Below are positions 14,377 through 55,695 of a DNA stretch of 64,000 bases, piece after piece. The notes under the pieces were generated by a model. The model saw only the letters and a program-made list of their open reading frames with translations. It did no database searches and was not told where the DNA came from. The translations under genes were made by a program, and so were the position numbers. The stretch lies in NCBI RefSeq assembly GCF_001677475.2, contig NZ_CP015229.1, one strand, 5' to 3'. This stretch comes from Escherichia coli (lineage in GTDB: Bacteria; Pseudomonadota; Gammaproteobacteria; Enterobacterales; Enterobacteriaceae). Position 1 is the first letter of the stretch. Each line of letters starts with the position of its first letter.

Positions 14377-14568
14377 AAAAAAGACCGTATTAGCTGATTT
14401 ACGGAAAATATGTACTCCACAAGCGTCAATATCAGACGAGGCCTGGGAAAAGATGATGTTGTCTGATGAAAGTAATCAGCAGCACATCCGTGAGGCTATT
14501 GTGGCGATGGAACGCAATAACCAGAAAAATTACTGGGAAGCGTTAGGCAAGGTTGAATGCCCGGATAT

Positions 14569-14598
14569 GTAGACGTGAAGCCGCAGCTTCACGTCTAC
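14569..14598. terminator. Perfect 13-bp stem / 4-nt loop palindrome between convergent adeD-side and LacI-family genes
   Basis: gtagacgtgaagc-cgca-gcttcacgtctac; no strong U-tract, so terminator function is uncertain. Confidence 0.35.
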
Positions 14599-14607
14599 AT
14601 TTAGCAC

Positions 14608-15567
14608 TTAACGTGAACGTATATCGGGAATAATTAAATCACCACGCAGAACATATGAACCCAGCATCGTCTGTGTCTTCTCGTTAAGCCAACTGACTAT
14701 CCGGGCGGCCATTTCGTCCAGCGAATACTCTATCGCCGGAATGGTCGGTATCCCCGGAAGATGAACAGTACCCGCCAGACTAAATACCATAATGTCCTCA
14801 GGAACAGATTTATTAAACGCCTGCAATTGCGGTATCACCCGCTGCGCTTGCTGTTCATCAGCAACTAATAACGCATTAAAGTTCAGTGTTGAGGCGTTAT
14901 TTAGCAGCTCCTGCAAAGCCACTGAGGAAGATATTGCTTCCATAAAAACCAGATTACGGTTAAAGGGAAGAAAGTTTTTCTCCAGCGCGTGTTTATAGCC
15001 CAGTAAGACCTGGTCAGAAAATCCCATACCGTGTGGGTGGATGAGGGCGATTTGTCGTCTGTTCTGACTTATCAGATAGTTACAAGCGGTTTCAGTCGCG
15101 AATGTGTGATCGAACTGAATACTGTTAACATCATTACCCGTCTCAAGGCAGTCCACCAGTATCACGTTTTCCTGATGAATATTCAGTGGGAAACGCGCAC
15201 CAATAATCAGTACGTCATCACACAAACCACAGCTCAGCTCATCAAGGGCGTTCTTTACCTCGGCTTTATTGCTGGCGAAGCGAAGAAGTAGATGTTTTTG
15301 ATGCTGGCTGAGATGTTTTTCCAGAGCGTAAAGATAACCGGTGGTCTGATTAATGTTTTCCTGAGCACAAATTACACCGATACAGCCCGTAGATTGCGTC
15401 AGCAGTGACTGCGCAATGACATTGGGACGATAGTTTAGCTCTTCGACGGCTTTCAATACCGCGAGACGGCTGGCTTCTTTAACACCACGCGATCCGCTCA
15501 ACACCCGAGAAACCGTCGCTTTTGAAACGCCAGCCAAACGCGATACATCATTGATAGTAGACATCAT
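14608..15567 (-). CDS. LacI-family transcriptional regulator (probable repressor of the adjacent beta-glucoside PTS operon)
   Basis: N-terminal HTH MSTINDVSRLAGVSKATVSRVLSG; periplasmic-binding-protein-like effector domain; divergent from the PTS operon. Confidence 0.8.
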   Translation of the reverse strand: MMSTINDVSRLAGVSKATVSRVLSGSRGVKEASRLAVLKAVEELNYRPNVIAQSLLTQSTGCIGVICAQENINQTTGYLYALEKHLSQHQKHLLLRFASNKAEVKNALDELSCGLCDDVLIIGARFPLNIHQENVILVDCLETGNDVNSIQFDHTFATETACNYLISQNRRQIALIHPHGMGFSDQVLLGYKHALEKNFLPFNRNLVFMEAISSSVALQELLNNASTLNFNALLVADEQQAQRVIPQLQAFNKSVPEDIMVFSLAGTVHLPGIPTIPAIEYSLDEMAARIVSWLNEKTQTMLGSYVLRGDLIIPDIRSR

Positions 15568-15855
15568 TCTCCCCTGACAGAGCGGCCCTGGCTCCCACAA
15601 TCCTGAATTCCTGTTGGCTTAAATATTAGCCATTCGCAGTATAACTGTTTCCGTTTTTTAATGGAAACCGATTTTCCATGACACCTCAAAACTGAGCTAA
15701 TAATGATAAAGATGTGAACAGAATCGAAATATTAACGCGACTTTATAGCGAAATCGGATAGCCGTCACAGTTTGTGTTTCCATGAATGGAAACCGGTTTC
15801 CAAATGATATCAAATCAATTGCGAAATAGATTTTTACATTCAGAGGATGTGTCAG

Positions 15856-16170
15856 ATGGTCAGGATTATGTTGTGTTGCTCTGCGGGGATGTCAACCAGT
15901 CTGCTGGTGAAAAAAATGGTCGAGGCCGCAGAAAGCAGAGAGCTACCGGTAGAGATAGATGCCTACGGAGTTTCCGAATTTGATATTCAGTTTCCAAAAT
16001 ATCAGGTGGTGCTACTCGGACCGCAGGTAAAGTATATGTTAAACATGCTCGCAGAAAAGGCCGCCCCCCAGGGAATACCCGTAAAAGCCATTGATATGGC
16101 GGACTACGGAATGCAACGGGGTGACAAGGTGCTGGATTACGCTCTGTCGCTCATTGCAGCGACACATTAG
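15856..16170 (+). CDS. PTS EIIB component, lactose/cellobiose family
   Basis: MVRIMLCCSAGMSTSLLV with active-site Cys motif; GAGGA RBS about 8 nt upstream. Confidence 0.8.
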   Translation: MVRIMLCCSAGMSTSLLVKKMVEAAESRELPVEIDAYGVSEFDIQFPKYQVVLLGPQVKYMLNMLAEKAAPQGIPVKAIDMADYGMQRGDKVLDYALSLIAATH

Positions 16171-16182
16171 AAAGGTGTCATT

Positions 16183-17514
16183 ATGAGTTCGTTATATCAA
16201 TCAATGGTTGCCGTTATTGAACAATCCATCACACCGCTTGCCGGGAAGCTGGGGCAGCAAAAATATGTGATTGCCATCCGGGACGGTTTTACTGCCGCTC
16301 TACCGTTTATGATCATCGGTTCGTTTATGCTGGTGTTCATTTTCCCACCGTTTTCGGCTGAAACAACCAACAGTTTTGCCCGAGGCTGGCTGGATTTCTC
16401 CGCCACCTACCGTGAACAGCTAATGTTGCCATTTAACCTCAGTATGGGAGTGATGACTTTCTTCATCTCAGTAGGAATCGGTGCCAGCCTTGGGCGACAG
16501 TTTAATCTCGATCCGATTATGTCTGGCTTGCTGGCATTTATGGCATTTTTACTGGTCGCAGCGCCTTACGCTGACGGCAAGATATCGACTCAATATCTTT
16601 CCGGGCAAGGTATTTTCACGTCGCTGATTACTGCGATTTATGCCACTCGTGTGTACGCCTGGTTAAAACAACACAACGTGACAATCCGCTTACCCAAAGA
16701 AGTCCCTACTGGGGTGGCGCGTTCCTTTGAGATCCTTATCCCGGTTCTGGTGGTCATTGCTACGCTACACCCACTGAATCTGTTTATTGAGGCCCAGACT
16801 GGAATGATTATTCCTGAGGCGATCATGCATCTTTTAGCGCCACTGGTCTCTGCCTCTGATTCCCTGCCTGCAATTCTGCTGTCTGTTCTGATGTGTCAGA
16901 TTTTCTGGTTCGCAGGTATTCATGGTTCACTGATTGTAACCGGCATCATGAATCCCTTCTGGATGGCAAACCTGTCGGCAAATCAGGCAGCTCTTGCCGC
17001 TGGCGCAGCACTTCCTCACGTTTATCTGCAAGGTTTTTGGGATCACTACCTGCTGATTGGTGGTGTCGGCTCGACGCTACCGCTGGCGTTCTTGCTGTTA
17101 CGCAGTCGCGTTGCTCACTTGCGCACCATCGGAAAAATGGGCGTTGTCCCCAGTTTTTTCAACATTAATGAGCCTATTCTGTTCGGTGCGCCGATCATCA
17201 TGAATCCGATGTTGTTTATCCCGTTCGTTTTCGTGCCAATTATTAACGCCATCCTGGCCTATACCGCGACCAGACTGGGCTGGCTGGCACAGGTTGTCTC
17301 ATTAACGCCATGGACCACACCTGCTCCAATTGGTGCCTCCTGGGCTGCCAACTGGGCACTTAGCCCGGTAGTGATGTGCATTATCTGTATGGTGATGTCG
17401 GCGCTGATGTACCTCCCATTCTTGCGCGCCTATGAACGCTCATTGCTAAAAAGCGAAGAACAAAAAGCGCAGGATACCGTCTCCGTGGCCAATGCAGCCC
17501 GTAGCAACTCATAA
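16183..17514 (+). CDS. PTS EIIC component, lactose/cellobiose family
   Basis: 443-aa polytopic membrane protein directly following EIIB. Confidence 0.8.
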   Translation: MSSLYQSMVAVIEQSITPLAGKLGQQKYVIAIRDGFTAALPFMIIGSFMLVFIFPPFSAETTNSFARGWLDFSATYREQLMLPFNLSMGVMTFFISVGIGASLGRQFNLDPIMSGLLAFMAFLLVAAPYADGKISTQYLSGQGIFTSLITAIYATRVYAWLKQHNVTIRLPKEVPTGVARSFEILIPVLVVIATLHPLNLFIEAQTGMIIPEAIMHLLAPLVSASDSLPAILLSVLMCQIFWFAGIHGSLIVTGIMNPFWMANLSANQAALAAGAALPHVYLQGFWDHYLLIGGVGSTLPLAFLLLRSRVAHLRTIGKMGVVPSFFNINEPILFGAPIIMNPMLFIPFVFVPIINAILAYTATRLGWLAQVVSLTPWTTPAPIGASWAANWALSPVVMCIICMVMSALMYLPFLRAYERSLLKSEEQKAQDTVSVANAARSNS

Positions 17515-17534
17515 TGAATCAAGGAGTAAGAACA

Positions 17535-18932
17535 ATGAGATACCGTTTTCCCGACAACTTCTGGTGGGGTAGTGCCTGCTCTGCGCTGCAAACCGAAGGG
17601 GATAGTCTGAACGGCGGCAAAAGCCAAACCACCTGGGATGTATGGTTCGAGCGCCAGCCAGGCCGCTTCCATCAAGGTATTGGCCCGGCGAACACATCAA
17701 CCTTTTATCAACACTGGCAACAAGATATTGCCCTGCTGAAACAGTTAAAACATAACAGTTTTCGCACCTCGTTAAGCTGGTCTCGCCTGATACCAGACGG
17801 TACTGGTGACGTAAATCCTGAAGCGGTGGCGTTCTATAACAATGTCATCGACGAGCTGCTGGCGCAGGGCATCACACCGTTTATCACCTTGTTCCACTTT
17901 GATATGCCGATGGTGATGCAGGAAAAAGGTGGCTGGGAGAGTCGTGAAGTCGTAGAAGCTTTTGGTGAATATGCCCGTACCTGCTTTGAACTGTTCGGCA
18001 ACAGAGTGAAGCACTGGTTTACCTTTAACGAACCGATTGTGCCGGTAGAGGGCGGTTATTTATATGACTTCCACTATCCGAACGTTGTTGATTTTAAACG
18101 TGCTGCGACAGTGGCTTACCATACCGTTCTTGCGCACGCCACGGCAGTTCGGGCATTTCGCCGCGGTAATTTCGAAGGTGAAATTGGCGTGGTGCTCAAC
18201 CTGACGCCTTCTTATCCGCGCTCGCAAAATCCGGCTGATGTTAAAGCCGCACACTGCGCTGACCTTCTGTTTAACCGCAGCTTCCTCGATCCGGTGCTAA
18301 AAGGAGAATACCCGGCAGACCTTGTAGCATTACTGAAAGAGTACGATCAGTTGCCGCAATGCCAGCCTGACGATAGTCAGCTAATCGCCGACGGAAAAAT
18401 CGACCTGCTGGGGATAAATTATTATCAACCCCGTCGAGTTAAATGCCGGGATAGCGCCGTAAACCCCAATGCTCCCTTTATGCCGGAGTGGTTATTTGAC
18501 TATTACGAGATGCCTGGGCGAAAAATGAATCCTTATCGGGGATGGGAAATTTATGAACCCGGTATTTACGATATCATCACCAATCTTCGCGATAATTATG
18601 GTAATCCTCGTTGTTTTATTTCTGAAAATGGGATGGGTGTAGAAAACGAGCAACGTTTTATTCAGGAAGGGCAAGTCAACGATAGCTATCGTATTGAATT
18701 TGTCGCTGAACATTTAAAATGGCTGCATAAAGGAATTAGCGAAGGGTGTAATTGCCTTGGCTATCATATGTGGACGTTTATCGATAACTGGTCATGGCTT
18801 AATGCTTATAAAAATCGCTATGGATTTGTTCAGCTTGATCTGGAAACGCAAACACGCACGATTAAAAAAAGTGGTGAGTGGTTTGCGACAGTTGCAGAAA
18901 ATAACGGTTTTGATTGCGAGAAACAAAAATGA
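17535..18932 (+). CDS. 6-phospho-beta-glucosidase (glycoside hydrolase family 1)
   Basis: FPDNFWWGSACSALQTEGD, TFNEP and ENG motifs typical of GH1; AAGGAG RBS 8 nt upstream of ATG at 17535. Confidence 0.85.
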   Translation: MRYRFPDNFWWGSACSALQTEGDSLNGGKSQTTWDVWFERQPGRFHQGIGPANTSTFYQHWQQDIALLKQLKHNSFRTSLSWSRLIPDGTGDVNPEAVAFYNNVIDELLAQGITPFITLFHFDMPMVMQEKGGWESREVVEAFGEYARTCFELFGNRVKHWFTFNEPIVPVEGGYLYDFHYPNVVDFKRAATVAYHTVLAHATAVRAFRRGNFEGEIGVVLNLTPSYPRSQNPADVKAAHCADLLFNRSFLDPVLKGEYPADLVALLKEYDQLPQCQPDDSQLIADGKIDLLGINYYQPRRVKCRDSAVNPNAPFMPEWLFDYYEMPGRKMNPYRGWEIYEPGIYDIITNLRDNYGNPRCFISENGMGVENEQRFIQEGQVNDSYRIEFVAEHLKWLHKGISEGCNCLGYHMWTFIDNWSWLNAYKNRYGFVQLDLETQTRTIKKSGEWFATVAENNGFDCEKQK

Positions 18933-19231
18933 TCGAACTAGAAGATGCTGTTATGGAAATAATCGTCAATGCCGGCCAGTCACGCAGCCTCTGTTTTGAA
19001 GCGTTACACGCGGCACGTGCCGGGAACTTTGATGAAGCCAAACAGCTGCTACATGAAGCTGACGGTTATTCGCGTCAGGCTCACCATATGCAAACCAAAT
19101 TGATCGAACAGGATGCTGGTGAGGCCCGTCAGCCAATGACATTAATTATGGTACATGCACAGGATCATTTAATGACATCGATGCTGGCACGAGAATTAGC
19201 AGAAGAAATAATTCATCTTTATCAAAGATAA
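18929..19231 (+). CDS. PTS EIIA component, lactose/cellobiose family
   Basis: ~100-aa helical protein; ATGA start/stop overlap with the GH1 gene. Confidence 0.7.
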   Translation: MIELEDAVMEIIVNAGQSRSLCFEALHAARAGNFDEAKQLLHEADGYSRQAHHMQTKLIEQDAGEARQPMTLIMVHAQDHLMTSMLARELAEEIIHLYQR

Positions 19232-19432
19232 TTAATTAATGCTTAGTGAGGAACATCTATTTGATAAAATAAAACCCCTGCTTTACCCAAGAATAAAATA
19301 GATAAACCACCCTGTTTCGGCAGTTAAAAACAAACCGAAACAGGCTGCTTATTATCATAAAACAAATTAATACACACCTTATATTTATTATGCCTAACGC
19401 ATAATGAATTATAACGTGTGCGTGAGATAATT

Positions 19433-20812
19433 ATGAAAAAGATAAATACACTTCCAGTTACCCTAGCGGTTATTGCCGCTTTGTACTCAATATCTGCCCA
19501 AGCTCAGGAATTTACTCAGGAACAAATAGACGCCATTGTGGCAAAAGCCGTCGATAAAGCATTAGCCGAAAGGCAAGAAAAAATGGATGCCGCGGCAGCG
19601 AAAAAAGTGGATGTTATTAACGAACCGGAAAGTGCTGCGCAGTCTCCGGATATGGCAATTCCCTTTGGCGTAAAATTTAGTGGTTATGCCCGTTATGGGG
19701 CTCACTTTCAAAGCGGCGATCAAAAATATGTTGCTGTAGACGGCTCCTATAATGGTGCATCTGCAATTGGTCGTCTGGGGAACGAAGGTAACGGCGGAGA
19801 GTTTCAGTTATCAAAAGCCTTCAAGAGCGATAACGGCGCAATCTGGGATGTCAATGTCATGATTGATCACTGGGGCGACGAAGTTAACCTGAAAAAAGCC
19901 TACGCTGGTGTCACCAATGTTTTGGCATCCAATCCTGACGCCTATATCTGGGCTGGTCGTGACTTCCACCAGCGCCCGCAACAGGGCATTAATGACTACT
20001 TCTGGATGACTCACGATGGTCAGGGTGCCGGGGTGAAAAATTTCGACATTGGTGGCATCAAGTTTGACCTTGCTACTGTCGCAGCGGTTGAATCCTGTAA
20101 TCCTGAAGTGATGGAGGATGAGACCAATCCGTCACGCATTACCTGTACTGGCGGGTCAGGAACGGGCGACAAAGGCAATTATGCGGTAACGTCCAAAATC
20201 CATGGTATGAAACTGGGGCCACTGGATCTTGAGTTGTACGCTAACTACGGCTTCGACTCAAAAGCGGTCGAAGGTGAAGACAAACTGAAAGCCTGGCAGG
20301 GGGCATTTGTTGTAAGCCATAGCAATGACAGCGGAGTGAATAAAGTCATTGCCCGCTACTCTGATAATTCCGATAACAGTGTTTACAATAAAACTGACGA
20401 TCTCACGACAATTTACGCCAGTTTTGAAGGTAGTCATAAATTTACCCAGCAGGCGCAAATCGAGTATTTACTGGCCTTCCATGATTACGACAACAGTTCT
20501 ATTAAGAGTGATAACCGCAAAAACTATGGCGTAATTGTCCGTCCTATGTATTTCTGGAATGACGTTCACTCCACCTGGCTTGAGGCGGGTTATCAACGGG
20601 TTGATTATGATAAAGGCGGAGATAATTCCGGCTGGAAGCTGACGCTGTCACAGAACATTTCTATTGCGATGGGCCCGGAATTCCGCCCAATGCTACGTTT
20701 CTACATGACGGGCGGGCAAGTTGATAATGACCGGACTGCACGCGTCAACGGTACAAAAGAGGAAACGCTTGACGACTTTAACCTTGGCGCGATGTGGGAA
20801 GCCTGGTTCTGA
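19433..20812 (+). CDS. Carbohydrate-specific outer-membrane porin (LamB/BglH-like)
   Basis: Signal peptide MKKINTLPVTLAVIAALYSISAQA; beta-barrel-like sequence ending in aromatic WEAWF. Confidence 0.7.
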   Translation: MKKINTLPVTLAVIAALYSISAQAQEFTQEQIDAIVAKAVDKALAERQEKMDAAAAKKVDVINEPESAAQSPDMAIPFGVKFSGYARYGAHFQSGDQKYVAVDGSYNGASAIGRLGNEGNGGEFQLSKAFKSDNGAIWDVNVMIDHWGDEVNLKKAYAGVTNVLASNPDAYIWAGRDFHQRPQQGINDYFWMTHDGQGAGVKNFDIGGIKFDLATVAAVESCNPEVMEDETNPSRITCTGGSGTGDKGNYAVTSKIHGMKLGPLDLELYANYGFDSKAVEGEDKLKAWQGAFVVSHSNDSGVNKVIARYSDNSDNSVYNKTDDLTTIYASFEGSHKFTQQAQIEYLLAFHDYDNSSIKSDNRKNYGVIVRPMYFWNDVHSTWLEAGYQRVDYDKGGDNSGWKLTLSQNISIAMGPEFRPMLRFYMTGGQVDNDRTARVNGTKEETLDDFNLGAMWEAWF

Positions 20813-20830
20813 CAGGCCACTCACATTGAG

Positions 20831-21283
20831 TTAATGCAACCAAAACACGCCTTCTTCTGGCTGGAAGAGGGCGTTATAGCGCATTTGGAAGGCATTAATC
20901 TCCTGCATATCTGGCTCTAACTCACGGAGAAAACCCAGCGCCAGACGGACCTGGGCATCAGTGATCGGCGCAGCAAGACGCGCTTTTTGCAACAACCGAT
21001 GCCAACGTAACAGGTTCTGCTCACTACCATCGACAATCACAATTTGCCAGATAAGTAACACCTGAGCAGCATTTTGCAGATGAGATTCATCCGGGCGATG
21101 CAAATAATACAAAAACTCTTTACCAGGCATTTTACCCATCTGATCGATCATCGATTCTACGGGTACAACATCAATATTAAGTCGTTCGCTTAAACGGCGA
21201 ATCGCCCGTCGGGTGCCTGACGTCAGAACCCGAAAACCAACCACAAACACCACCACGACGGTGGCAAGCATTATCCAGATCAT
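20831..21283 (-). CDS. DUF1198-family protein, second yicN paralogue (copy 2)
   Basis: 150 aa, roughly 85-90% identical by eye to copy 1 at 10596..11048 (about 19 substitutions); similarity extends into the flanks. Confidence 0.75.
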   Translation of the reverse strand: MIWIMLATVVVVFVVGFRVLTSGTRRAIRRLSERLNIDVVPVESMIDQMGKMPGKEFLYYLHRPDESHLQNAAQVLLIWQIVIVDGSEQNLLRWHRLLQKARLAAPITDAQVRLALGFLRELEPDMQEINAFQMRYNALFQPEEGVFWLH

Positions 21284-21355
21284 GCGTTCTCCTGCGCATC
21301 AACTTTTGATGATATCTGGAAAACTCCCCCAGGCGTTAATCTGGTCAAATTGAAT

Positions 21356-32242: not shown

Positions 32243-32382
32243 CAAAAAACCCCGCCGGAGCGAGGTTTCGTCAGCCGCCCGCGGCTGGTAACCGCAAAGC
32301 ACACTGTATTATGTCAACACTGAAAGTATACGTGTTCCGCGCAGAACGCGCAATTTCGGCACGAATTTTGACGTATTTAGGG
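32243..32382 (-). ncRNA. istR: IstR antisense sRNA (IstR-1/IstR-2), antitoxin RNA of tisB; coordinates approximate
   Basis: Placed from the known divergent tisAB/istR architecture: LexA box at 32425..32444, tisB at 32679, T-run on the minus strand at ~32241-32250 taken as the 3' end. Not derived from a sequence match. Confidence 0.4.
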
Positions 32383-35433: not shown

Positions 35434-35603
35434 TGTTGCTCCTTTGCAATTTCACTAACGCTCTATCTTTAGCGGTTTTTTTTAAGAATTTCGTCCGCCC
35501 GTTTCCTGATATGCTTTTGCCATCCGCTGCAAGGAGGTCAGATGGGTATCATAGCGCAAATTGACATCCTCCACGCCCTGAAGGACGAGGATCCCTGCTA
35601 CGT

Positions 35604-36812
35604 TCAGGCTGTCGCCTGAATCATTTCGGTGGGTTCCTGCTTCAACGAGCGGCCTGACTGCACCATCTCTCCACAGGCAAGAACGGCGTGCCCCGCCGCT
35701 AAAATGTTACGAGCGCCATTTACATCGGCGTTCGCTGTATATCCACATACCTGGCATCTGAATTTACTTTGTGACAGGCGATTTTCTTTCGCTGTATGAC
35801 CACAGCACGCGCAACGCTGGCTTGTGTACGCTGGCGGAACAGCAAGCACCTGACCGCCACTCCAGAGCTGCTTGTACTCAAGCTGGCGGCGCATTTCATA
35901 CCAGCCCTGATCCAGTATCGTACGGTTTAAACCTGATTTTGCCCGGACATTGCGCCCCGGCTGGCTGACCGTACCCGCTGCTGACTTTGACATGTTGCTG
36001 ACCTTCAAATCCTCAATGACTATCATTGCGTGGTTTTTACTGACGGTCGTTGTGACTTTGTGAAGGTAGTCCCTGCGGATATTTGCGATACAGGAATGCA
36101 GTCGCTGTATTTTGCGTTTCTGCTTCTGCCAGTTGTTGCTGAATTTGACCTTGCGGCTTAACTGTCGCTGAAGTCTCGCCAGCGTCTTCTGGTTTTTCTG
36201 AAAACTGTTTACAGGCCCAAAGACTGTGCCATCTGACAGCGTGGCGAGTTTAGCCACGCCAGCATCCAGCCCGACCATTGATGCTGAAGGGTGAACCGGA
36301 GTTGATACTTCACTTTCAGTCTGAATACTGATGTACCACTTACCGCAGGACTGGCTGACAGTGACATTTTTCACAACACCCGTGACCTGACGGCTATTCC
36401 GGTAGCGCATCCAGCCAAGTTTCGGCAGAAAAATACGGCTTTTTTCCTGATCGAGCTTAACGCCCTGCGGGTAGCGGAATGCATCATTCTGTCCCCGCTT
36501 TTTGAATCGGGGAAAAGCAGCCCGCTTCTGGAAGAAGTTTTTGTAAGCCCGCTCAAGGTCTTTCAGTGACTGTTGCAATGGCTGTGAGGGCGAATCTTTA
36601 AGCCATTGCATTTCAGTGGCGTTTTTCCACTCAACCAGCCAGGAAGCCATTTTCCCGTAAGGGATGTATTTATTACCGGCCTCATGATTCTCATTCTGAA
36701 GCGCCAGAGCACGATTGAAAACGAAACGACATGCGCCTGCGAAGCGCCTCATTTCACGCTCCTGTTGGCCACCTGGTCTTAACTGGAATTTAAATGCCTG
36801 TAGTCGTTTCAC
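35604..36812 (-). CDS. tnpB: TnpB (OrfB) RNA-guided endonuclease-like protein, RuvC-like plus zinc finger
   Basis: 402 aa; N-terminal [16 protein letters not shown]...FNRAL; C-terminal CxxC...CxxC (CACCGH...CQVCGY). Confidence 0.85.
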
Positions 36813-36819
36813 AGGCCAA

Positions 36820-37251
36820 ATGATACTTTGGTCTGTGAATAAAGAAACCGATATCCGACGGGGAAGGCATTGTGTTTTCCTGATGCATGTTCACCTGGTC
36901 TTTGTCACCAGATACCGACGTCAGATTTTTGACTATGACGCGACAGAAAAACTACGCACTTACTTTTCAAATGTATGTGCTGATTTTGAAGCTGAACTGG
37001 TTGAAATGGATGGCGAACCAGATCACGTCCATTTGTTAATTAACTATCCTCCCAAACTGGCGATATCCAGTCTGGTAAACAGCCTCAAAGGCGTATCGGG
37101 TAGGTTACTGCGACGAGATCGACCAGATATTGCAGTCAGGTATTACTACAAAGGCGTTTTGTGGAGTCCTGGCTATTTTGCCAGTAGCTGCGGAGGTGCG
37201 CCAATATCCGTCATCCGCCAATACATTGAACAAAAGCAAACACCTGGTTAA
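36820..37251 (+). CDS. tnpA: IS200-type Y1 (HUH) transposase TnpA
   Basis: HCVFLMHVHLVFVTRYRR (HUH motif) and catalytic Tyr region; start chosen at MILWS inside the longer ORF. Confidence 0.8.
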   Translation: MILWSVNKETDIRRGRHCVFLMHVHLVFVTRYRRQIFDYDATEKLRTYFSNVCADFEAELVEMDGEPDHVHLLINYPPKLAISSLVNSLKGVSGRLLRRDRPDIAVRYYYKGVLWSPGYFASSCGGAPISVIRQYIEQKQTPG

Positions 37252-37381
37252 GTGGAAAACCTCGCCTTATATCCCCGCCCTGAAGGACGGGGTTTTACGG
37301 CGCACCGGATAAATTTGGTTATGCGCCGTCAGCCGTGCTGAAGAATAGGGACCAGCACCCAACGGATGCCAGTCCACACAA

Positions 37382-40320
<2,939 letters not shown>

Positions 40321-40615
40321 TTCCACATCCTCTTTTCTCAATTCTGTAAGTAGGAAGCCTGATTGGTTATGCGGCAGGCCTGGAGCGAGGATAGGAAGAT
40401 GCGATCGGCAGAACATGACGACCCAATGGGATTCGTGATCGCTTTCATGCTTTTCGTTGGGCGGTAGAGATCTACGTTTTCGCGAAAAAGTAGACATCTG
40501 TGAGCACTGGTACACAGCATCGAACACATCTTTAAAAAAAAGATGTTTTTTCAATCGATTAAGCAGAACTTGTGGGCGCATTACCCAGGCTTGCAGGCAA
40601 AAAAGAGATCTAGAG

Positions 40616-41332
40616 ATGATCTACAAAAGCATTGCGGAGCGGTTAAGAATTCGACTTAATTCCGCAGATTTCACGCTAAACAGCCTTCTTCCCGGTGAAA
40701 AAAAGCTGGCGGAAGAGTTTGCGGTATCGCGGATGACCATCCGTAAAGCCATTGATCTGCTGGTAGCGTGGGGGCTGGTGGTCCGCCGCCACGGTAGCGG
40801 CACTTACCTGGTGCGCAAAGATGTACTGCATCAAACCGCCAGCCTGACCGGGCTGGTGGAGGTGTTAAAACGCTAGGGAAAAACGGTCACCAGCCAGGTG
40901 CTGATTTTTGAAATCATGCCTGCGCCTCCGGCCATTGCCAGCCAGTTACGGATTCAAATCAACGAGCAGATCTACTTCTCCCGTCGCGTTCGTTTTGTGG
41001 AAGGGAAACCGCTGATGCTGGAAGACAGCTATATGCCGGTAAAACTGTTCCGTAACCTTTCGCTGCAACATCTGGAAGGGTCGAAGTTTGAATATATTGA
41101 ACAAGAGTGCGGGATTCTGATTGGCGGTAATTATGAAAGCCTGACGCCGGTGCTCGCCGATAGACTGCTGGCGCGGCAAATGAAGGTAGCGGAACACACG
41201 CCACTGCTGCGGATCACCTCGTTGTCATATAGCGAGAGCGGGGAGTTTTTGAATTATTCAGTGATGTTCAGAAATGCCAGCGAATACCAGGTGGAGTACC
41301 ATTTACGGCGACTCCACCCGGAAAAGAGTTAA
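40616..41332 (+). pseudogene. yidP: GntR/HutC-family regulator yidP interrupted by an in-frame amber codon at 40874..40876
   Basis: N-terminal GntR HTH ORF ends at TAG after ...TGLVEVLKR; the UTRA-like C-terminal domain continues in the same frame (40898..41332 ORF). The 717-nt span fits a ~238-aa protein. Confidence 0.65.
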
Positions 41333-42990: not shown

Positions 42991-43185
42991 CGTCCATTTC
43001 TCTTGAGATAACATTTTAATTGCTACGGATTATGGCTGAATCGGTGAAGCAGATTTGCCTTATAGCGCACATTATCACGGGAAAGAACGTGCCGAAATAT
43101 CTTAAACAGGCGAAATTTAATGCATTGTTAAAGAAGAAAGACAAAAAAAGCCCCACCAGAATGGCGGGGCAAAGAGAATAGCTAG

Positions 43186-43725: not shown

Positions 43726-44139
43726 TTAGTTGATTTCGATGCGGCGCGGTTTTTTCGCTTCCGGAATCACGCGTTCGAGATCGATATACAGCAGACCATT
43801 CACCAGGTTAGCACCACGAACATGAATGTTCTCAGCTAACTGGAATTTACGTTCAAAGTTGCGTTCAGCGATGCCCTGGTACAGATAGGTGCGCTCTTTT
43901 TGTTCGTCGGCGTGAGCACCTTTCACCACCAGAAGATTATCCTGGGCGGTAATTTCCAGTTCGCTCTCAGCAAAACCAGCCACAGCGATAGCAATGCGGT
44001 AATGGTTTTCGTCTACCAGTTCAACGTTATACGGAGGGTAGCCGCCATTACTCTGGCTCTGGTTGTTTTCTAAGTGGTTAAACAAACGGTCAAATCCAAT
44101 AGCAGAACGGTAAAGCGGGGATAAATCAAAGTTACGCAT
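43726..44139 (-). CDS. ibpA: Small heat-shock protein IbpA
   Basis: 137 aa from [17 protein letters not shown]. Confidence 0.9.
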
Positions 44140-44242
44140 AATCAATAGCTCCTGAAATCAGCGAGAATGTAAGACCTTCCACAATGGACAGGTCAGGTAG
44201 CCAGAACCCCCATCAGGCGCGTCCTCATCGGCTACGATGTAA

Positions 44243-47194: not shown

Positions 47195-47268
47195 GAGAGT
47201 GCGCCAATCAACGCGACGACGGAGATATAAACCAGTGCAGGCGCGAAGCCATAGCCTTGCAACAGATA
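47155..47268 (-). pseudogene. Orphan 3'-terminal fragment of a membrane-transporter gene (probably a dgoT remnant), convergent with and overlapping the cbrA 3' end
   Basis: Minus-strand frame encodes a hydrophobic C-terminal peptide (...[39 protein letters not shown]) bounded upstream by an in-frame stop with no start codon. Assignment to dgoT is from K-12 gene order recalled from memory, not from an alignment. Confidence 0.35.
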
Positions 47269-49551: not shown

Positions 49552-49586
49552 GCCGGATGCGGCGTTAACGCCTTATCCGGCCTACA
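49552..49586. repeat. REP (repetitive extragenic palindrome) element
   Basis: gccggatgcggcgttaacgccttatccggcctaca closely matches the enterobacterial REP consensus. Confidence 0.65.
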
Positions 49587-49670
49587 AAATCATGCAAATT
49601 CAATACATTGCAGGAGTCTCGTAGGACTGATAAGCGTAGCGCATCAGGCACGCTCGCATGGTTAACGCCA

Positions 49671-54291: not shown

Positions 54292-55695
54292 TTACGATGA
54301 CAATGTTCTGATTAAATTTGAAAAATCTTCTTTGATATCGTGGCTCTCTTCACGCAACTGCTCGATCTTCCGGCAGGCATGAAGCACCGTCGTGTGGTCA
54401 CGACCACCAAACGCATCGCCAATCTCCGGCAGACTGTGGTTAGTCAGCTCTTTCGCCAGCGCCATCGCCATCTGGCGCGGACGCGCCACCGAGCGGGATC
54501 GACGCTTGGAAAGGAGATCCGCGACTTTGATCTTGTAGTACTCCGCCACCGTCTTCTGAATATTGTCGATGGTGACCAGTTTTTCCTGCAATGCCAGCAA
54601 GTCGCGCAGCGCCTCACGCACGAAGTCGATGGTGATCGCCCGTCCGGTAAAGTTGGCGTTGGCAATGACGCGGTTCAGCGCGCCTTCCAGCTCACGTACG
54701 TTAGATCGTAGACGCTTGGCGATAAAGAACGCCACTTCGCCTGGCAAACGAATGTCGTTTTCGTCGGCCTTTTTCATCAGGATCGCCACGCGGGTTTCCA
54801 GCTCTGGCGGTTCGATCGCCACAGTCAGTCCCCAACCGAAGCGGGATTTCAAACGATCCTCAACGCCGTTGATCTCTTTCGGATAGCGATCCGAGGTGAG
54901 AATGATCTGTTGATTACCTTCCAGCAGGGCGTTGAAGGTGTGGAAAAACTCTTCCTGAGATCGTTCTTTATTAGCAAAAAACTGAATATCGTCGATCAGC
55001 AGTGCATCTACGGAACGGTAGTAGCGTTTAAACTCTTCGATCGCGTTATTTTGCAGGGCTTTAACCATGTCCTGAACAAAGCGCTCGGAGTGCATATAAA
55101 CCACTTTGGCATTCGGCTTGCGCGCCATAATGCCGTTACCCACCGCATGCAGCAGGTGAGTTTTACCCAGACCCGTGCCGCCATAAAGGAACAACGGGTT
55201 ATAGGCACCGCCAGGGTTATCTGCCACCTGGCGAGCCGCCGCGCGCGCCAGTTGGTTAGATTTACCTTCGACGAAGTTATCAAACGTGTGTTTGACGTTT
55301 ACGTTAGAACGATAGGTCGGTTCTGCCGGGGCCGGGACGTTATCCCAACCTGAGCGCGTAGAAGGCGCAGCACGTTGCGGCTGCGTTTGCGCCACCTGTG
55401 CAGGGGCCGCGACGTTGCTCGTCACTGCCGCTTGTGGCGTTTGCGTCACCGGTTTGGTGCCCACTTCAAAACGCAGCTGTGGGGCATCCGCTCCGCAGAA
55501 ACTGGTTAGCAGTCCATTGATATTATTAAGGTACTTGTCCCGTACCCAATCGAGGACAAAACGGTTTGGCGCGTACAGGGCCAGCGTGTTATCGCTCAGT
55601 TCCGCCTGCAATGGGCGTATCCACATACTGAATTCTGTGGCTGGTAACTCATCCTGCAATCGGGCAAGACACTGCTGCCAAAGCGAAAGTGACAC
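54292..55695 (-). CDS. dnaA: Chromosomal replication initiator DnaA (GTG start)
   Basis: 467 aa from the GTG-encoded start at [15 protein letters not shown]+ Walker [12 protein letters not shown]-terminal DNA-binding domain. Confidence 0.95.

Follow-up and report, generated by a model that had tools for sequence, protein, structure and literature searches.

The window analysed here is a 64-kb stretch of Escherichia coli DNA, in which yidP occupies positions 40616..41332 on the plus strand. The gene comprises 238 codons plus a stop and encodes a GntR/HutC-type regulator in which codon 87 has become a stop codon. The name yidP was given according to the position of the gene and its annotation in K-12 and in thousands of other E. 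coli genomes, and the assignment as a pseudogene is based on translation and on a Pfam search with the repaired protein. The amber codon TAG at 40874..40876 (plus strand, designated Q87*) is in frame with both the ATG at 40616 and the terminal stop at 41330..41332, and it results from a C>T change at 40874. Codon 87 reads CAG in K-12 MG1655 as well as in GMF065, the nearest complete-genome yidP allele, from which the ancestral context of codon 87 was taken. Compared with K-12, the gene of the window shows 10 nucleotide differences over 717 positions; nine of them are synonymous, and the remaining one is the C>T change of Q87* itself. The initial annotation had proposed that a single TAG parts an HTH reading frame from an effector-domain reading frame in the same frame, that the whole span matches a regulator of about 238 residues, namely yidP, and that orthologues should carry a sense codon such as CAG at this position. 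Translation, the Pfam domains, the K-12 annotation and the orthologous codons confirmed this description.

The domain content was determined with Pfam on the repaired 238-aa protein. The GntR winged-HTH domain covers residues 3-64 (PF00392, 74.1 bits, cutoff 27) and the UTRA domain covers residues 87-224 (PF07702, 106.6 bits, cutoff 23.8), so that the position of the stop coincides with the start of the UTRA effector domain. The residual product (40616..40876, plus strand) is 86 aa long by translation and consists of the winged HTH and linker only; exactly this product is also found in public assemblies. Downstream, gene callers predict an in-frame remnant of 144 aa starting from a GTG (40898..41332, plus strand), which carries the UTRA domain. 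A member of the HutC subfamily holds both domains uninterrupted on a single polypeptide, while here the TAG at codon 87 separates them. Therefore, the locus is a pseudogene of a GntR/HutC family member and no functional member of that family. The architecture of winged HTH plus UTRA is common to YidP, NagR/YvoA of Bacillus subtilis, DasR and YydK, and the closest solved structure is that of the HutC-type repressor NagR/YvoA, which was aligned over residues 2-233 with E = 3e-24. Unlike NagR/YvoA, the YidP of the window ends before the UTRA domain. In K-12, YidP (b3684) is a putative GntR-family regulator encoded by the same gene at the same position with the same neighbours as here. It is listed in the literature among uncharacterised GntR regulators, and our literature search found no study of the function, targets or mode of action of YidP.

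Two intact genes lie next to yidP on the minus strand. The first, at 38704..40320 and divergent from yidP, encodes an alpha-glucoside PTS EIICB of 538 aa, identified by Pfam and by the NCBIfam model TIGR02005 for alpha-glucoside-specific PTS EIICB (959.2 bits, cutoff 607.3, all 524 model positions covered); the protein is identical to the GMF065 copy. The second, at 37382..38704, encodes a GH4 6-phospho-alpha-glucosidase of 440 aa with both the N- and C-terminal GH4 domains in Pfam (PF02056, 223.6 bits; PF11975, 190.1 bits). Orthologues from other Enterobacteriaceae are 86-92% identical to it and that of Proteus about 80%, and the orthologue is named 6-phospho-alpha-glucosidase in RefSeq. The predicted activity of such an enzyme is the hydrolysis of phospho-alpha-glucosides dependent on NAD+ and Mn2+; no NCBIfam equivalog model reached its cutoff. 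Both genes are full-length, in agreement with the initial annotation, with no stops in the GH4 gene and no lineage-specific amino-acid substitutions in either protein.

In K-12 the situation is the reverse. The GH4 counterpart glvG is a pseudogene with an internal deletion of about 490 bp, equivalent to positions 37611..38104 of the window, and glvC and glvB are the two parts of a split EIICB gene, while the regulator is intact. Opposite halves of the same system have thus decayed in the two genomes. The contrast between an intact operon here and a cryptic one in K-12, as drawn in the initial annotation, therefore holds, but the intact operon has no special status: GH4 is full-length in 1,650 of 5,426 complete E. 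coli genomes (~30%), about 2,600 (~48%) have it with the K-12-type deletion, and about 1,150 (~21%) are without the whole locus. The yidP-glv locus is visibly in flux across E. coli. At 35561..37308, where K-12 has yidI-yidJ-yidK and the greater part of yidL, the window has an IS200/IS605-family element instead, with tnpB at 35604..36812 (minus strand) and tnpA at about 36820..37251 (plus strand); many genomes are annotated with this arrangement, E. coli C and ATCC 8739 among them.

Arbutin had been named as an alpha-glucoside suitable for growth tests, but it is a beta-glucoside; the relevant substrates are those reported for the Klebsiella homologues. In Klebsiella (aglA/aglB), Raoultella and other genera, orthologues of EIICB (~80% identity) and GH4 (~89% identity) are found in the same order with a divergent YidP orthologue. 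Substrate range and inducibility are known from experiment for the aglA/aglB genes of Klebsiella pneumoniae only. The glv genes of K-12 have been called cryptic or truncated homologues of Klebsiella aglA and aglB (PMC5309279), and the substrates given for the Klebsiella homologues in that paper, which cites Pikis 2006, are methyl-alpha-glucoside, isomaltose and the sucrose isomers.

Comparison across species indicates what YidP might control. A scan of one genome per species detected YidP orthologues in about 65 Enterobacterales species, and the regulator was divergent to EIICB-GH4 in 65 of the 65 loci with enough upstream DNA, which come from about 20 genera. Even in Proteus, where the YidP orthologue is only 53% identical and yidE is no longer adjacent, the divergent arrangement with EIICB-GH4 is retained. 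Together with a conserved inverted repeat in the spacer, this conserved divergent synteny makes the EIICB-GH4 operon most likely the target of YidP, and the initial proposal of glv as the probable target is thus backed by other genera.

The sites predicted in the glv-yidP spacer were recorded without strand. A CRP-like site, CGTGA-N6-TCATG at 40434..40449, is a consensus match only, and its GTGA-N6-TCA core recurs in 64 of 64 orthologous spacers. A repeat search further revealed a candidate YidP operator, the inverted repeat ATCTA-N16-TAGAC at 40470..40495, which in E. coli is situated within a 34-bp palindrome (40466..40499). In other genera the repeat reads GTCTA-N16-TAGAC, and it was found in 41 of 64 spacers, 0.3 being expected from shuffled sequences. 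Of the three GTCTA half-sites in E. coli, two are ATCTA. The arms are always separated by 16 nt, and in each of the 41 spacers with the repeat, which come from many genera, the distance to the centre of the CRP-like site is exactly 41.5 nt. So rigid a phasing suggests joint action of the regulator and CRP. Seen from the EIICB gene, the repeat lies beyond the CRP-like site, upstream of it with respect to the likely glv promoter. The same search returned a second copy of AGAGATCTA at 40604..40612, which abuts the yidP start codon and overlaps the Shine-Dalgarno region. It is possibly a candidate autoregulatory half-site, and 46 of 64 spacers have G[GA]TCTA within 16 nt of the regulator ATG. As another operator, the palindrome TCTAC-N-GTAGA of E. 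coli was considered and rejected, since only 1 of 64 spacers has this pattern. A consensus scan of the spacer for promoters and terminators found none, including no sigma-70 consensus promoter, and no Rfam family matched in the spacer. The core of HutC-type operators is GT-N-TA-N-AC. The candidate half-site GTCTA/TAGAC of YidP resembles one half of this core, but the two half-sites are 16 nt apart, whereas those of HutC-type operators abut.

The initial annotation had left room for a sequencing error, in which case the gene would be intact in the organism. In favour of this, only one base differs; however, the change is a substitution and no homopolymer indel, and the same base occurs in two separate assemblies of the window's own lineage. 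L004 (GCA_018682865.1) matches 12,261 nt of the stretch except for one private SNP at 43121, and L012 (GCA_002516285.1) matches 7,548 nt except for one private SNP at 39355; both carry the same TAG. In addition, the same allele recurs in the collection in about 40 blocks for which the longest contig with the allele is at least 10 kb. Because three related but non-identical genomes all have the TAG, a sequencing error was excluded as the cause, and a sequencing or assembly artefact is hardly credible. The allele is nevertheless rare. Among 3,632 complete genomes with a match to a 57-mer around codon 87, none has the version with CGC at codon 86 followed by TAG, and the CGC-TAG haplotype was found in 0 of 5,426 complete RefSeq E. 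coli genomes; Q87* after CGG at codon 86 was found in 2 of these 5,426, LR-25 and PSJ-36. A TAG-bearing 33-mer gave no exact match in contigs of one genome per species, as is expected when a single genome represents each species. The yidP Q87* allele is a genuine, rare and ordinary lineage-specific pseudogene allele.

Q87* was found on at least seven yidP haplotypes, which differ from each other by 3-22 of 717 nt. Codon 86 is CGC in four of the seven haplotypes and CGG in three, so that base 258, which adjoins the TAG, differs between the two groups. Between pairs of Q87* haplotypes, the identical tract around the TAG extends over just 11-524 nt. Because of the short shared tracts and the difference at base 258, several independent C>T events are the more parsimonious explanation. 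Spread of one TAG allele by recombination was also considered; it is less likely in view of base 258 and of tracts as short as 11-80 nt.

5-Methylcytosine deamination at Dcm sites is a textbook source of amber hotspots in E. coli, and such hotspots at CCWGG were reportedly first described in lacI by Coulondre and Miller in 1978. With the ancestor reconstructed from GMF065, the wild-type sequence CGC-CAG-GGA holds the Dcm site CCAGG, position 40874 is its inner C, and the mutation converts CCAGG to CTAGG. On the CGG background, by contrast, codons 86 and 87 give GCAGG, which is outside the Dcm context. As for the allele of the window, the chances are about even that it originated by deamination of 5-methylcytosine at the Dcm site, judging from this sequence context. 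Since three of the seven Q87* haplotypes are without Dcm context, Dcm does not explain every origin and is only part of the Q87* recurrence. The dcm gene itself is outside the 64-kb window. The likeness to the lacI hotspots lies in the change of CCAGG to CTAGG at the inner cytosine, giving TAG on several backgrounds; the differences are the three haplotypes without Dcm context and an excess that comes from a small, non-random sample.

For comparison, other transition-type nonsense sites of yidP served as controls, and only genuine stops were counted in a small, non-random sample of public contigs. Q87*, with Dcm context on CGC and none on CGG, was represented by seven haplotypes with a genuine stop. 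Q110* and Q73*, both without Dcm context, were represented by two haplotypes each, and Q94*, the other site sampled with Dcm context, by only three haplotypes, which were nearly identical and came from a sample where one clone predominated; this last count speaks against the Dcm reading. These counts fit a baseline of about two origins per site with extra origins of Q87 on the Dcm-context background. Raw contig counts of truncated products were dropped as a hotspot test, as most of the control 'truncations' proved to be cuts at contig ends. It should be pointed out that many apparent truncated proteins in the public protein collection are contig-end artefacts of this kind, which calls for caution among users of such counts.

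Several other truncated YidP products were noticed in public records. Q94*, which yields a 93-aa product, is genuine in five loci and its codon is in CCAGG context; in the public protein collection, 190 contigs carry an A45D variant of this product. A 224-aa product matching Q225*, whose codon is likewise in CCAGG context, is named in Shigella flexneri records and is found on 270 contigs.

The yidP gene is under strong purifying selection in E. coli, judging by the 32 synonymous and 3 non-synonymous segregating sites among its haplotypes (pN/pS ~0.03). Internal stops are absent from all 69 orthologues from other species, 57 of which retain Q87. A lone stop in an otherwise perfectly conserved ORF under such selection argues that the interruption is not a chance feature. 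The TAG haplotypes show no further damage downstream of the stop. The absence of downstream decay, together with the low pN/pS, indicates that the Q87* events are recent. The Q87* alleles are thus, by this sequence evidence, young nulls of a gene that is usually kept intact.

Taken together, the reading we regard as likely is that Q87* is a recent, lineage-specific null of yidP, caused by one C>T change, through which regulated control of the intact EIICB-GH4 operon was lost. A single transition from CAG to TAG, for which deamination at the Dcm site is the likeliest route, created the stop. According to the mechanism we propose, translation ends after 86 residues and leaves the winged-helix DNA-binding domain without UTRA. 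As suggested by the domain map and by homology to NagR/YvoA, effector binding and dimerisation would be lost with UTRA, and regulated control would be gone. If YidP is a repressor, as HutC-type precedent suggests, the operon would become constitutive while still depending on CRP. Loss of regulation is the likely outcome, and the altered glv expression suggested in the initial annotation is plausible; its direction is deduced by analogy, with derepression predicted for a repressor and silencing for an activator.

The opposite direction therefore deserves weighing. YidP might be an activator, or a co-activator with CRP, in which case Q87* would silence the intact glv operon and render it functionally cryptic. 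We consider this unlikely, although several features of the spacer speak for it. The distance between the repeat and the CRP-like site is constant at 41.5 nt, and the repeat is on the side that faces away from EIICB; this puts it about 100 nt upstream of the tentatively assigned glv transcription start, as is often the case for activators. The spacer without a consensus promoter suggests dependence on an activator. A position upstream of the CRP-like site fits activators or anti-activators at least as well as it fits simple repressors. However, the promoter positions come from a tentative consensus reading, the best structural relative is named a repressor, and to our knowledge the characterised HutC-type sugar regulators (NagR, DasR, TreR, MngR, FrlR and PhnF) are repressors. 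Retention of function, either by amber readthrough or suppression or by two halves acting as a split protein, seems very improbable. An amber suppressor that inserts glutamine would yield exactly the wild-type protein, but there is no tRNA gene in the window, hence no local suppressor, and suppressors are rare in natural isolates. As to a split protein, an in-frame 144-aa ORF over the UTRA domain is called downstream, and the DNA-binding domain of NagR alone (78 aa) has been solved as PDB 4u0y; on the other hand, no evident ribosome-binding site precedes the GTG at 40898, and dimerisation and allostery would, by analogy with NagR/YvoA, need a covalent link between the domains.

It may further be asked whether the loss of YidP is adaptive, with nonsense alleles recurring because constitutive alpha-glucoside uptake and hydrolysis are selected in some niche. 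The recurrence of Q87* on at least seven backgrounds, the many other truncating yidP alleles in public data (Q94* and Q225* among them) and the undamaged target genes in the lineage of the window would be in keeping with this idea, but on balance we find it improbable. Q87* also occurs where GH4 is already broken in the K-12 manner (L003, L006-L008 and L010), and derepression gives no catabolism there. The excess is confined to one site, which points to mutational bias, while selection would enrich all nonsense sites. Moreover, the alleles are shallow and very rare, being present in just 2 of 5,426 complete genomes, and the gene itself is under strong purifying selection. Strong expression of GlvC, the Bacillus subtilis homologue of EIICB, appeared toxic in E. 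coli (PMC5309279). A more far-reaching version is that YidP loss is repeatedly selected in E. coli lineages whose alpha-glucoside PTS is intact, as a natural switch that turns a normally silent CRP-dependent system constitutively on, with GTCTA-N16-TAGAC, at its constant distance from the CRP site, as the operator of a CRP-coupled HutC-type mechanism; we regard this combination as quite improbable. Recurrent mutation followed by loss fits the data better than adaptive spread, and Q87* looks like a transient product of mutation and no adaptation.

The Q87* allele of yidP contains nothing outside known categories, as it concerns a known family, a known type of PTS operon and an ordinary transition. 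The finding alone matters little, being one more strain-specific pseudogene in a fluctuating locus. Nevertheless, the strain is a natural yidP-null with intact EIICB-GH4 and thus a ready test of an uncharacterised K-12 transcription factor, for which the comparative data yield a concrete predicted target operon and a candidate operator. The allele also serves as an example of a Dcm-site codon that produces the same amber allele repeatedly.

Several other features of the window were noted, many of them in comparison with K-12. At its left end, positions 1..8202 (minus strand) form one open frame of 2,734 aa that runs past the left edge; it matches the giant inverse autotransporter adhesin EaeX/Air with only 93% identity, in about 709 complete genomes. 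Four plus-strand ORFs at 1526..4783 were considered as genes and rejected, as they gave no hits in Pfam, PADLOC or NCBIfam and are shadow ORFs of the adhesin gene on the opposite strand. Between nepI and yicN, a stretch of about 840 bp (9680..10521) is without a K-12 counterpart in the region compared. An insertion of about 7 kb between adeD and uhpT (14382..21353) contains genes for a LacI-family regulator, a PTS EIIC, a GH1 family glycosidase and a LamB-like porin. The glycosidase is likely a phospho-beta-glucosidase, and the whole insertion looks like a beta-glucoside utilisation cluster. Two ORFs of 508 and 435 aa (26630..29677, minus strand) are inserted between uhpA and ilvN; they had no match in Pfam, PADLOC or NCBIfam, and both are RefSeq hypothetical proteins found with at least 80% coverage in about 641 complete genomes.

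On the other side of yidP, the D-galactonate utilisation operon dgo (most of dgoT, together with dgoD, dgoA, dgoK and dgoR), which corresponds to about 4.75 kb at 3870543..3875297 in K-12, is absent at 47260..47262, and cbrA adjoins the region upstream of yidX almost directly at this gap. Between mnmE and tnaC, positions 60307..62493 (minus strand) hold an inserted ORF of 728 aa, in which Pfam recognises the N-terminal domain of the ShET2 enterotoxin (PF07906, 171 bits). Finally, Rfam identified four complete and expected RNA elements in the window, namely istR at 32244..32373, the ROSE_2 thermosensor upstream of ibpA at 44133..44205, ES036 at 49586..49628 and the dnaA antisense RNA AsdA at 55105..55185.
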